DNA of 15,604 nt from a virus (Duplodnaviria; Heunggongvirae; Uroviricota; Caudoviricetes), in IMG/VR virus record IMGVR_UViG_2657245483_000005. One strand, given 5' to 3'. The first letter of the stretch is position 1, and the number at the start of each line of letters is the position of its first letter. Positions 12,055-15,604 of the stretch are shown here, in pieces. Made by a program: the position numbers and the translations under genes. The notes under the pieces are model-generated. The model was not told where the DNA came from. It ran no database searches and worked only from the letters and a program-made list of their open reading frames with translations.

Positions 12055-12731
12055 GTAGGTACACGGATCTAATCACTAACTACCACGCCACTAAGCCGAA
12101 ATACCTCGATCACATCGATCTTAGTACCCGTCCCCTGATTGATATCACGTCAGCCACAAGGGGCCTGGTGAGTGCGTTTGACATTGATACGGCTGTTGGC
12201 GTGCAACTCGATATTCTCGGACTCTGGATTGGACGTAGCCGTATAGTCAGCCAGCCCATTAGTGGCGTTTATTTCAGTTGGGACACGGAGGGGCTCGGAT
12301 ATGACCAGGGCGTATGGCAGGGGCCATATGATCCTGACTCCGGCTATACGACGCTTAGCGATGATACCTATCGCACTATTCTGAAAGCAAAAATCGCTAT
12401 TAACAACTGGGACGGGCGTAACGACTCGCTTCCGGACATTCTTGACACTGCCACAGTGGGTTCGGGCCTGAAGATGCAGATCGTCGACAATCAGGACATG
12501 ACGATATCGGTCTGGGTATTTCCCGAGACTGATATTTCTGATGTGTCTCTCGAACTGATCGCCGCTATCAAACAGGGCTATCTCACCGTTAAAGCCGCTG
12601 GCGTCTGGGCCGGTGATGTTGAAATGCCTTCGGTTGAAACACCGTCCGAAGGAACAAAATTCTTTGGATTTGACATGGATAACGAATACATCGCCGGTTT
12701 TGATGACGGCGCATGGGGGAGATTACTTTAA
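12051..12731 (+). CDS. Baseplate wedge / tail-fibre attachment protein (gpI-like, DUF2612-like)
   Basis: ATGA overlap with the gpJ-like stop; 226 aa, immediately upstream of the tail fibre gene. Confidence 0.6.
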   Translation: MSRYTDLITNYHATKPKYLDHIDLSTRPLIDITSATRGLVSAFDIDTAVGVQLDILGLWIGRSRIVSQPISGVYFSWDTEGLGYDQGVWQGPYDPDSGYTTLSDDTYRTILKAKIAINNWDGRNDSLPDILDTATVGSGLKMQIVDNQDMTISVWVFPETDISDVSLELIAAIKQGYLTVKAAGVWAGDVEMPSVETPSEGTKFFGFDMDNEYIAGFDDGAWGRLL

Positions 12732-13510
12732 TGGCTGGAACTAATGATTTTAAAGCGTTTGCGACAGATGCTAATGCAAATGTTACCTCGCAGGAGGAAT
12801 GGGAGACGCTAACCGCACTGAAGAAAGGATTCTCCTCGGGTAAAGCATCCAGCGCACAGGTCAGTAAAGCGCTGCGCCAACCGTCGACGATGGCGGCTGT
12901 ACTGGGGCAGTTTATCGCGAACGCCGAACTGGACGCGCTCGATGATGGTGACGTTGATGGACTGGTGGCAAAGCTGGCGACAGCGATTACCACAAACCTT
13001 GGTTTGGGAGAAGGCTCAGCATTACCCGTTGGCGTACCTGTTCCGTGGCCTTCAGCCACACCGCCGACAGGCTGGCTGAAATGCAACGGTGCCGCTTTTT
13101 CTGCTGAAGAATACCCGGAACTGGCAAAGGCTTACCCGACAAATAAATTGCCTGATTTACGTGGTGAGTTTATTCGTGGCTGGGATGACGGGCGTGGAGT
13201 GGATAGCGGTCGTACTTTATTAACGAATCAAGAGCATGCAGTAATTTCTCATAATCATGGAATACCTACAAAAGTGGGGTCAGTTACTAATATCCCGTAT
13301 GGAATAGAACAGGTTATATCTGATGAAACCATTTTTTCATCAGCAAAAACAGTTGGTGTGGATTACTGGTCTAACAGTGAAAGAGTTTTTACTTATACCT
13401 CTGGTGGAAGAAATGGTGCTGAATCAGTGAGTTCACCTGATGCCTCCTCTTTAATTAAAGAAACCAGACCACGGAACCTAGCATTTGCGTATATCGTGAG
13501 GGCTGCATAA
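12731..13510 (+). CDS. Tail fibre protein: constant N-terminal part (codons 1-90) plus currently joined variable C-terminal part
   Basis: TAATG overlap start at 12731 (an alternative in-frame ATG lies at 12713). The C-terminal part contains LPDLRGEFIRGWDDGRGVDSGRTL, a collar-type motif I recall from tail fibre proteins. A crossover site sits at codons 86-94. Confidence 0.8.
   Translation: MAGTNDFKAFATDANANVTSQEEWETLTALKKGFSSGKASSAQVSKALRQPSTMAAVLGQFIANAELDALDDGDVDGLVAKLATAITTNLGLGEGSALPVGVPVPWPSATPPTGWLKCNGAAFSAEEYPELAKAYPTNKLPDLRGEFIRGWDDGRGVDSGRTLLTNQEHAVISHNHGIPTKVGSVTNIPYGIEQVISDETIFSSAKTVGVDYWSNSERVFTYTSGGRNGAESVSSPDASSLIKETRPRNLAFAYIVRAA
12987..13012. repeat. Left crossover site of the invertible segment (hix/gix-like 26-bp imperfect palindrome)
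   Basis: ttaccacaaaccttggtttgggagaa, central dinucleotide TT at 12999-13000. It is 21/26 identical to the reverse complement of the site at 14971-14996. Confidence 0.7.
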
Positions 13511-14112
13511 TGGTGAAAGCAAAATTAAACAGTGCGTTTATTGCCACCGTGGCAGGTGAAATCACTGTGTACAACTACCGGGGCGACACCCGCGAATACA
13601 TATCCTCATCGGTTGAGTATCTGCCTGTGGGGGTGGGTATTCCTGCCAATTCCTGTACCGATGCGCCCGGCACACATAAAGCTGGTTATGCAATCTGCCG
13701 TTCTGCAGATTTTAACTCATGGGAATATGTGCCAGACCATCGCGGTGAAACGGTATATAGCACTGAAACAGGAGAATCAAAAGAAATCACAGCTCCGGGT
13801 GATTACTCTGAAAATACAACTACTATCGCCCCGTTAACGCCATTCGATAAATGGGATGGTGAGAAATGGGTGACCGATACTGAGGCACAGCATAGCGCCG
13901 CAGTAGACGTGGCAGAAGCACAGCGCCAGTCGCTGATTGATGCTGCTATGGCTTCCATCAGTCTGATTCAGCTGAAATTGCAGGCCGGGCGGCAACTGAC
14001 GCAAGCAGAAATCACTCGCCTTAACGCTGTGCTGGATTACATTGACACGGTGACGGCAACAGATACCAGCACCGCGCCGGATGTCATCTGGCCTGAACTG
14101 CCGGAGGCGTAG
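13510..14112 (+). CDS. Tail fibre assembly protein (Mu U / lambda Tfa-like), currently expressed orientation
   Basis: TAATG overlap with the fibre stop; 200 aa; C-terminal LDYIDTV..DTSTAPDVIWPELP matches the conserved Tfa C-terminal pattern. Confidence 0.75.
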   Translation: MVKAKLNSAFIATVAGEITVYNYRGDTREYISSSVEYLPVGVGIPANSCTDAPGTHKAGYAICRSADFNSWEYVPDHRGETVYSTETGESKEITAPGDYSENTTTIAPLTPFDKWDGEKWVTDTEAQHSAAVDVAEAQRQSLIDAAMASISLIQLKLQAGRQLTQAEITRLNAVLDYIDTVTATDTSTAPDVIWPELPEA

Positions 14113-14527
14113 GCCATTCAATATCTGGAGCACTGGAGGTATCAACCAGTTCCAGTGCGTCCAGATAATCCAGCCACAAATTATATTGCGCCAGTTCCTC
14201 ACTTTTCAGACGACCAATCGCCGCTTTGCCAGGCCACTGATGAGTATTGATGTAGGTATTGACTTCAGAAACCAAAGATATTTTTTTCATTTCAGCCGTC
14301 AACACCTCATCCTCTTTTGAAGGGGGTGGGGAATTAATCCATACTGGCCGTCCTGAACTGTCAGCGCCAATTTCTTTCCCTTCTGGATGCAGCCCAAGAA
14401 ATTGCTCATATGTTTCTCTGGTAATTTCAATAACATCATCAGGAAGCGTTCCCGCATCCTCATATTCTGGAAACAATTCTTGCAGATAAAAACTTTTACT
14501 TCCGGGTGAAAAGAATACTGAGTTCAT
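14084..14527 (-). CDS. Alternative tail fibre assembly protein (U'-like)
   Basis: Minus-strand 147-aa ORF with C-terminal LDYLDALELVDTSSAPDIEWPTPP, matching the Tfa pattern; located directly downstream of the minus-strand fibre tip. Confidence 0.7.
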   Translation of the reverse strand: MNSVFFSPGSKSFYLQELFPEYEDAGTLPDDVIEITRETYEQFLGLHPEGKEIGADSSGRPVWINSPPPSKEDEVLTAEMKKISLVSEVNTYINTHQWPGKAAIGRLKSEELAQYNLWLDYLDALELVDTSSAPDIEWPTPPAVQAR

Positions 14528-14529
14528 TC

Positions 14530-14982
14530 TTACCGTCCAATGATTAATGCTGAGACGCTGGTATCTGAAGGAAAGGCTGCATTCAGTGGTTTGTCGACTT
14601 TGAACACAATCGTATTATTCCCCCTGACAGCGGCAAAAGAACAAACCGCAGTCGCGTATGAACCTGTAATATTACTGGATACACCACCATAAGCTGTTGT
14701 TGATACCAGAGGGATAACGCCCAGCACCTTATTAGGAAATACAAAGGGCAATGTGGCTGTGGCAATATAAGACTTATTAGAACCTGTAATGGCATAAGCA
14801 TTATCAGTCATTCCATTCATCGCCACCGGGCCGCTTATACTTACAGTAACCATCTGAATGATTAGCCCGTCAGGTTGACGAATCACAAAATTTCCATTGC
14901 CACCAGTAACCGTCCAGAAAGACATATCAGGGATTTGGTTTTCCCCGTTGCCCACATTCCGTTTTGCCGCTTCTCCCAAACC
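14530..14982 (-). CDS. Alternative tail fibre C-terminal cassette (Sv'-like), startless, fused to the fibre gene only after inversion
   Basis: Minus-strand frame open from the right crossover site to the stop at 14530. The sequence after the core encodes GLGE, the same residues that follow the core in the plus-strand fibre, and the frame matches. Confidence 0.7.
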   Translation of the reverse strand, partial: GLGEAAKRNVGNGENQIPDMSFWTVTGGNGNFVIRQPDGLIIQMVTVSISGPVAMNGMTDNAYAITGSNKSYIATATLPFVFPNKVLGVIPLVSTTAYGGVSSNITGSYATAVCSFAAVRGNNTIVFKVDKPLNAAFPSDTSVSALIIGR

Positions 14983-14996
14983 AACCTTTTTTATAA
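14971..14996. repeat. Right crossover site of the invertible segment (hix/gix-like)
   Basis: ttctcccaaaccaaccttttttataa, central AA at 14983-14984; the inner 14 bp are identical to the inner half of the left site in inverted orientation. It lies 60 bp upstream of the invertase ATG. Confidence 0.7.
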
Positions 14997-15026
14997 CCAT
15001 CAAAAATCTGGTGATGCTTCGCCGTT

Positions 15027-15049
15027 TCTCCTGTTTTCATAACAGGAGA
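15027..15049 (+). promoter_or_regulatory. Perfect 9-bp stem hairpin that includes the invertase Shine-Dalgarno
   Basis: tctcctgtt / ttcat / aacaggaga; the right arm contains AGGAG, 7 nt before the ATG at 15056. Confidence 0.5.
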
Positions 15050-15055
15050 AATCCC

Positions 15056-15604
15056 ATGATTTACGGTTATGCCCGAGTATCAACAAACCACCAGGACACT
15101 GAATTGCAACTAACGGCGCTCAAGTCAGCGGGTTGTGAGAAAATTTTTGAAGAGCATGCCAGCGGGAGGAAATCGAATCGGCCGGTTCTAAAACGGCTGA
15201 TCGCCACTATGCAGCCGGGGGATGAACTGGTGGTCTGGAAGCTGGACAGGATAGGCCGCAACGTTCTGCATGCGCTGTTGATGTTCCAGCAGTTACAGGA
15301 AAAGGGTATCAACTTCCGCAGTATTACCGATGGCGTGGATCTCAAAACAGCCAGCGGCCGCTATAACTTTCGTAACATCCTTTCCGCAGCACAATATGAA
15401 TCTGATCTTAATAGCGAACGTACCTTAGCAGGGCTGGCCGTAGCCAGGGCAAAAGGGCGAGTTGGTGGTCGCAGGCCTAAGTTCACGGATGAGCAATGGC
15501 GGGAAATGGGGGAGCGGATGGCAACCGGTGAATCACGACAAAGCGTATCAAAAACGTATGGAGTAGGGCTCTCAACTCTGTATAAAAAGTTTCCAGCTAG
15601 CTGA
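15056..15604 (+). CDS. Serine DNA invertase (Hin/Gin/Cin/Pin family)
   Basis: Starts MIYGYARVSTNHQDTELQ, with the catalytic Ser in the RVST motif, and has a C-terminal helix-turn-helix (GESRQSVSKTYGVGLSTLYKKFPA). The track ORF begins at 14897, but the family-conserved N-terminus and RBS place the start at 15056. The stop is at the window end. Confidence 0.93.
   Translation: MIYGYARVSTNHQDTELQLTALKSAGCEKIFEEHASGRKSNRPVLKRLIATMQPGDELVVWKLDRIGRNVLHALLMFQQLQEKGINFRSITDGVDLKTASGRYNFRNILSAAQYESDLNSERTLAGLAVARAKGRVGGRRPKFTDEQWREMGERMATGESRQSVSKTYGVGLSTLYKKFPAS

Follow-up and report, generated by a model that had tools for sequence, protein, structure and literature searches.

DNA invertases set the rate at which tail fibres are flipped in a phage population, and hence its host range. 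Work on these enzymes has centred on recombination chemistry and the Fis enhancer, and the scarcity of the enzyme, together with its independence from the strong late transcription that enters the gene, is less studied. In the Caudoviricetes sequence analyzed here (the window, 15,604 nucleotides), the Shine-Dalgarno (SD) sequence of an invertase gene is part of a perfect inverted repeat. This raised the question of whether the repeat acts as an RNA structure that limits invertase translation, as a DNA site for a protein, or in some other capacity. The window matched an E. coli prophage that stops just behind the invertase gene and whose invertase end abuts yciI-tonB (L002 3706-4120; right end of the window), a junction that is also that of phi80 (PMC5727415). 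The prophage thus occupies the phi80 attachment region, although its tail and baseplate genes belong to the baseplate J/gp47 type. Near the left end, positions 246-255 are ten consecutive N, which stand for masked or unknown bases.

The inversion module and the leader of the invertase gene

The invertase gene (15056-15604, + strand) encodes a 182 aa protein of the Pin/Gin/Cin/Hin type, in which Pfam identified a Resolvase domain (PF00239, 3.6e-39) and a C-terminal HTH_7 domain (PF02796, 1.5e-09). It is identical at the protein level (100%) to the invertase of mEp237, and the gene shares 92.7% DNA identity with pinL of phi80. Within the invertible segment are a tail fibre with a Collar domain, two Caudo_TAP genes that face each other, and a C-terminus of the gp53-like kind. 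Specifically, a tail-fibre ORF with a Phage Tail Collar domain (12713-13510, Pfam) is followed by a tail-fibre assembly gene (13510-14112), and the minus strand carries the opposed tail-fibre assembly gene (14084-14527) and the opposed gp53-like fibre end (14530-15003). The left crossover site (12987-13013) lies within the tail-fibre ORF, and the right site, TTCTCCCAAACC AA CCTTTTTTATAA (14970-14996), forms the edge of the segment; the two are 27 nt long, inverted in orientation and 81% complementary. With a small serine recombinase and two inverted crossover sites around a tail-fibre segment, the locus has the organization of a Gin/Cin/Pin/Hin inversion system. Beside the same invertase type, 32 distinct versions of the right crossover site were gathered. 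In eight related loci the homologous segment DNA was flipped relative to the invertase gene, which indicates that the system inverts in nature and that some enzyme is made.

The main hairpin occupies 15024-15052 on the + strand, with its 5' arm at 15024-15035, its loop (TTCAT) at 15036-15040 and its 3' arm at 15041-15052. Eleven perfect pairs join TTTCTCCTGTT (15025-15035) to AACAGGAGAAA (15041-15051), and in RNA a twelfth pair, G15024·U15052, is added. The 9-bp repeat that an initial annotation had described at 15027-15049, tctcctgtt and aacaggaga around ttcat, was found there and is the core of this longer repeat. The same annotation had placed the AGGAG of the invertase in the 3' arm, 7 nt before the start codon, which agrees with our coordinates: AGGAG spans 15044-15048, wholly within the 3' arm, and the ATG begins at 15056. 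It had also put the hairpin just inside the right crossover site, which needs correction, as the hairpin lies 28 nt outside that site, in the fixed invertase leader. Hybridisation of CAGGAGA to the 16S 3' end was calculated at -7.4 kcal/mol.

This is the longest perfect hairpin-type inverted repeat in the 15.6-kb window, where chance would yield 0.03 repeats with ≥11 bp and a 3-10 nt loop. The second longest, CTGATGAAA ccattt TTTCATCAG (13320-13343, 9 bp), sits within the variable part of the tail-fibre ORF. Folding of the leader RNA, a check that the initial annotation had suggested and which was run on 15000-15075 (76 nt), gave -24.9 kcal/mol with z = -4.45, and none of 200 shuffles was as stable; the main hairpin folded alone gave -15.4 kcal/mol. 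The hairpin does not have the form of an intrinsic terminator, with G-C in only 4 of its 12 pairs and AAATCCCATG following it. A scan of the element against Rfam 15 returned two chance-level matches (E 7-9, 13 bits) and none at the gathering score.

The accessibility of the SD was calculated from the partition function. Its mean unpaired probability was ~0.001, and the same measure for the 17 other genes of the window ranged from 0.03 to 0.70 (mostly 0.2-0.6). Occlusion was the same for transcripts starting at 14940, 15004 or 15024, and the SD was freed only when the 5' end was placed at 15030 or later (unpaired probability 0.39-0.80). Between 25 and 70 °C the value stayed below 0.005 (0.0001-0.004). 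An RNA thermometer of the ROSE or fourU type, in which an imperfect stem around the SD melts between ~30 and 42 °C, was consequently rejected, as the stem here is perfect and the SD still paired up to 70 °C. Modelled in this way, a perfect stem of 11-12 bp and -15 kcal/mol would be expected to lock the site almost completely.

Directly upstream is a second structure, the small, G+C-rich and terminator-like hairpin 1 (15010-15023, + strand; GGTGA tgct TCGCC), and the T-rich stretch behind it is the 5' arm of the main hairpin. Hairpin 1 is weak, with 5-6 pairs, -6.7 kcal/mol and an interrupted U-tract. Hairpin 1 (15009-15024) was nevertheless the sole call in a + strand terminator scan between the tail-fibre genes and the invertase, and read-through into the invertase gene is therefore plausible. 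In the 14 leader variants described below, its pair at alignment columns 9-18 is sometimes C-G and sometimes U·G, which fits pairing in the + strand RNA only.

A candidate weak promoter for the invertase was recognized at 14990-15018 (+ strand). The right half of the crossover site would supply its -35 element, TTTATA (14990-14995), and the loop of hairpin 1, after a 17-bp spacer, its -10 element, GATGCT (15013-15018; GATNNT). A spacing of 16-18 bp and the A2 and T6 of the -10 element were kept in most of the aligned variants, and a consensus promoter scan did not call this candidate. Its start is inferred to lie at ~15024-15025, at the foot of the main hairpin, and TATAAC in the crossover site would give a start at ~15004; either of these predicted starts would leave the full stem in the mRNA. 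No transcription start site data were found for the invertase. Three other candidates were examined and discarded. A promoter within the hairpin, TGTTTTCAT, loses its last T in most variants (TTCAC, TTTAC); translational coupling through a + strand ORF (15042 being the last position of its TAA in the loop, 14875 its start) would depend on a stop that is absent from the TTCAC and TTTAC variants; and an invertase extended at its N-terminus from the in-frame ATG at 15014 is contradicted by most variants, which have GATACT or GACATT there. On the minus strand, the first ten invertase codons read as a promoter-like match (15083-15056, TTGATA-16-AATCAT), from which an antisense RNA would run over the hairpin and the crossover site into the opposed fibre gene. 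It is possibly a chance match, because this sequence is fixed by conserved codons.

Conservation of the palindrome among relatives

We compared the leader with those at 80 viral-contig loci and in several phage and E. coli records. The viral loci were mostly near-identical enterobacterial prophages and contained 14 distinct leader variants. The palindrome, TTCTCCTGTT N5 AACAGGAGAA, was present in all of these relatives but a small group of the mEpX1 type. Its surroundings varied: among ~35 distinct relatives, identity fell to 70% (nt) in the invertase coding sequence, with third codon positions at 40-60%, and to 57-77% in the 30 nt upstream. The loop occurred as TTCAT, TTCAC, TTTAC or TTTAT, and the spacer between SD and ATG was also variable. 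Sequence extraction set no constraint on the core of the 5' arm (10 bp), which was unchanged in the relatives save in one singleton, L018 (IMG/VR UViG_2541047828_000009). In this natural variant a T-to-C change at the equivalent of window position 15027 introduces a C·A mismatch into the stem, with no difference in the invertase coding sequence; the predicted unpaired probability of the SD is raised about ten-fold and still low. Both arms are selectively conserved, and the pattern is strong evidence, at the sequence level, that both are under selection.

Across the 14 leader variants, 9 of 12 pairs were invariant and a compensatory change was found at 1 of 12, the outermost pair, where the window type has U-A and the phi80 type C-G. 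With so many invariant pairs and a single compensatory change, covariation cannot separate an RNA stem from a DNA palindrome in this lineage. A perfect Watson-Crick palindrome also folds equally on either strand.

The element moves with the invertase gene across phage backgrounds, being found beside a myovirus-type tail module here and in phi80, mEp237 and HK225. Any trans-acting factor would thus be the invertase itself or a host factor, and passage through such different backgrounds argues against a phage-specific regulator. In the phi80 record (GenBank JX871397) the same element is annotated as a repeat_region, 'IR3', with no function given; it has the same 11-bp inverted repeat and 5-nt loop and ends 5 nt before pinL. 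Beside pinL, phi80 (L001 2371-2562) retains a single crossover site and part of a tail-collar gene. The phi80 invertase is therefore an orphan, and its hairpin is still intact.

A metagenome scan anchored on the first codons of the gene returned four copies of the element, no new variant, and mostly unrelated soil resolvases. Many of the soil resolvase genes starting MIYGYARVST (L169-L288) were preceded by paired repeats, TGCA(N)AA(T/A)NT...TGCA, which resemble res-type binding sites overlapping a promoter and are unrelated to the main hairpin. A genome scan with the family alignment found mainly distant recombinases among the matches listed; in the Morganella and Kluyvera relatives among those matches (71-74% protein identity), the main hairpin was absent.

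Shine-Dalgarno occlusion in other invertase lineages

Leaders of 90 distinct Pin/Cin/Gin-type genes were compared, using shuffled sequence upstream of the SD as the control and defining strong occlusion as an unpaired probability of ≤0.03 with a shuffle p of ≤0.02. Strong occlusion was found in four further lineages: P1 cin, the common e14-like type, the mEpX1 type and L343, each with an SD-occluding stem. The stem of P1 cin is GCUUGCUAU N8 AUAGUGAGC and includes two G·U pairs, that of the e14-like type is UUCCUG N7 CAGGGA, and that of the mEpX1 type is UUCACCUG ... CUGGGUGAA (UUCACC.../...GGGUGAA). Each SD is matched by its own partner, GGUGAA by UUCACC and GGAGAA by UUCUCC. The leaders of P1 cin, of e14 pinE and its relatives, and of the mEpX1 type share with the window the gene family and the position of the element, a pyrimidine stretch 15-30 nt upstream pairing with the SD, and the e14 and window types have the core CCTG...CAGG in common. 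Relative to the window type, these leaders have shorter stems (6-9 pairs) that include G·U pairs and enclose larger loops. The G·U pairs of the P1 cin, e14-like and mEpX1 stems mean that these form in the sense RNA only and are not DNA palindromes. As background, the Salmonella hin leader has a similar dyad, TTCTTCCTTA...TAAAGGAGAA, which was left out of the evidence weighed here.

Occlusion was not general in the family. The SD was unpaired with a probability of 0.50 in Mu gin, 0.42 in Fels-2 and ~0.3 in P2-like leaders, and it was likewise not clearly occluded in the Morganella types. Mu gin keeps AACAGGAGA without a complementary 5' arm.

In the mEpX1-type leaders (L056, L061-L064, L093), which form a sister lineage, the SD GGGTGAA pairs with TTCACC. 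In the alignment, the window-type counterpart of this stretch is TTCGCC, which makes up the 3' arm of hairpin 1. Judging from this alignment, the anti-SD partner seems to have switched position between the window and mEpX1 lineages.

The e14, P2-like, Fels-2 and Mu lineages share a further conserved motif, TGGCAT(C/G)AT, which directly precedes the pyrimidine arm and lies ~26-35 nt ahead of the invertase start (for example, L083 4648-4656 for e14 pinE and L084 3550-3558 for Mu gin). It resembles an extended -10 element and is likely a shared invertase promoter.

Possible roles of the hairpin and comparison with known systems

Our preferred explanation, to which we assign a probability of roughly 60%, is that the main hairpin works as an RNA lock on invertase translation together with the terminator-like hairpin upstream. 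In this model, any transcript starting upstream of ~15030 would fold its pyrimidine-rich 5' arm, UUUCUCCUGUU, onto the 3' arm containing the SD, and 30S binding would be limited to rare opening of the -15 kcal/mol stem. The lock would act both on the gene's own transcript and on read-through from the late tail-fibre operon, and the trace of invertase produced would keep tail-fibre switching rare, whatever the strength of transcription through the region. The two hairpins would form a two-part insulating leader in which late-operon transcripts are weakened and then silenced, and the gene's own mRNA would also be kept almost untranslated. We infer that the hairpin is fully transcribed and that it lowers translation; a start at 15030 or later would remove the 5' arm and would count against a lock on the gene's own mRNA. 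The suggestion in the initial annotation that the stem hides the SD agrees with the calculated occlusion, the invariance of both arms and the recurrence of unrelated stems in other lineages, whereas the 'throttle' it spoke of is probably an understatement. The predicted lock is so tight that any synthesis of invertase is hard to explain, and no means of opening it was found. If the hairpin is the main limiter of the enzyme, it would explain why switching is rare, and a single mutation in the stem would tune inversion frequency in natural prophages or in engineered switches.

In a broader reading, leaders that bury the SD, as in the window type, P1 cin and the e14-like and mEpX1 types, are an old and repeatedly re-invented feature of the tail-fibre invertase family. 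The lock of the window type would then be so tight that the invertase is made only when something specifically opens it, for instance a helicase, leader processing, or an RNA or protein acting in trans. Host-range switching would then be an inducible response and not a constant low-rate coin flip. We regard this reading as unlikely.

Alternatively, the hairpin may only insulate the gene from read-through, with the invertase promoter starting transcription within or after the 5' arm so that the stem forms in late-operon transcripts alone and blocks fortuitous activation, as for the transposase of IS10. This has a small chance of being correct. It agrees with the finding that the SD becomes accessible (0.39-0.80) solely with a 5' end at 15030 or later, with the position of TGGCAT(C/G)AT in the e14, P2-like, Fels-2 and Mu lineages, where it would place the start after the arm, and with the plausibility of read-through past hairpin 1, the sole terminator-like site upstream. 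The window lineage, however, has no -10-like element that would give a start at 15030 or later. Its homologous motif, TGGTGATGCT, would give a start at ~15025 and the TATAAC of the crossover site one at ~15004, both of which would include the whole stem, and TGTTTTCAT within the hairpin is disrupted in most variants by the loss of its last T, as described above.

A DNA operator was the alternative offered by the initial annotation. Here, a dimer of the invertase (autoregulation) or a host protein would bind 15025-15051 and repress transcription, which we consider doubtful, and the invertase itself is disfavoured as the ligand. The idea draws on the perfect 11-bp dyad and on the outer 6 bp of each half (TTCTCC), which are identical to those of the consensus crossover half-site TTCTCCCAAACC. 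Tn3-type resolvases, which are relatives of the invertase family, autoregulate at sites upstream of their own gene (res), and res-like repeats were seen upstream of the soil resolvase genes. Yet against a profile built from 36 real crossover half-sites taken beside this invertase type, the palindrome halves scored -3.8 and -7.1 bits versus +10 to +16 for true halves, and 9-20% of random 12-mers from the window scored as well. The information in real sites lies in an inner AAA(CC) that the palindrome lacks (its inner six positions score -11 to -15 bits), and the geometry is 11-5-11 and not the 12-2-12 of gix/cix/pix-type sites. Moreover, with their G·U pairs the equivalent stems of P1 cin and of the e14-like and mEpX1 types are not DNA palindromes, and 15025-15051 lies downstream of every candidate promoter.

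It is also improbable that the main role is non-translational, with the stem stabilising the mRNA at its 5' terminus or the 5' arm serving as the U-tract of a hairpin 1 terminator. With a start at ~15025, as predicted from the best candidate promoter, the mRNA would begin with the stem. Hairpin 1 and the GTTTCTCCTGTTTT after it fit a terminator pattern, and the C-G/U·G alternation of hairpin 1 fits pairing in the + strand RNA. Neither role, however, needs an SD in the 3' arm or perfect complementarity over 11 bp, a U-tract role leaves the invariance of CTCCTG unexplained, and hairpin 1 is weak (-6.7 kcal/mol) with its U-tract interrupted. A functionless chance palindrome conserved merely through recent copying is highly improbable: most of the 80 viral loci are near-identical and yield only 14 distinct leader variants, but just 0.03 such repeats are expected in the window, and the arms are invariant where third codon positions stand at 40% and the neighbouring leader at 57% identity.

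An SD hidden in a stem is a standard textbook form of control, and an RNA lock on the invertase would change no principle. What may be new is a strongly selected stem that is far tighter than its counterparts, and the recurrence of SD-burying leaders with different sequences across invertase genes. In the literature on invertase leader hairpins and autoregulation, of which our coverage was incomplete, no description of these stems was found.

Two transposons offer the closest comparisons. In IS10/Tn10, read-through transcripts hide the start of the transposase, and the element's own transcript begins inside the structure. The window is similar in that an upstream complementary stretch would hide the translation start in transcripts from outside, the invertase lying directly downstream of a strongly transcribed late operon, and it differs in that its candidate promoters would put the whole stem in the gene's own mRNA as well. 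A better match to the IS10 layout may be the e14, P2-like and Mu lineages, with TGGCATNAT directly before the arm; by analogy, the arm in the e14, P2-like, Fels-2 and Mu lineages may be present in read-through RNA only.

The nearest documented parallel is the left end of IS200, which has a terminator hairpin and a 5'-UTR stem-loop that sequesters the transposase SD, as demonstrated by toeprinting and stem mutations (PMC4513863). Its product is an HUH transposase and that of the window a serine invertase; the IS200 stem-loop is long (nt 69-138) and imperfect, whereas the stem in the window is short, perfect and 11-12 bp; and the IS200 effect was demonstrated experimentally, whereas the lock in the window is predicted from its sequence. 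In IS200 an antisense RNA and Hfq reinforce the effect of the stem-loop. The window element has no known antisense RNA, and the place of the IS200 antisense RNA is equivalent to that of the minus-strand promoter-like match in the window. The two systems are alike in that a pair of neighbouring inverted repeats precedes the gene for a recombinase that has to be kept scarce, the first repeat terminator-like and facing incoming transcription, the second pairing an anti-SD with a near-consensus SD, and a candidate start site lying between or beside both. If the hairpin is the main limiter of the invertase, serine invertases would share the self-restraint of transposases such as that of IS200.
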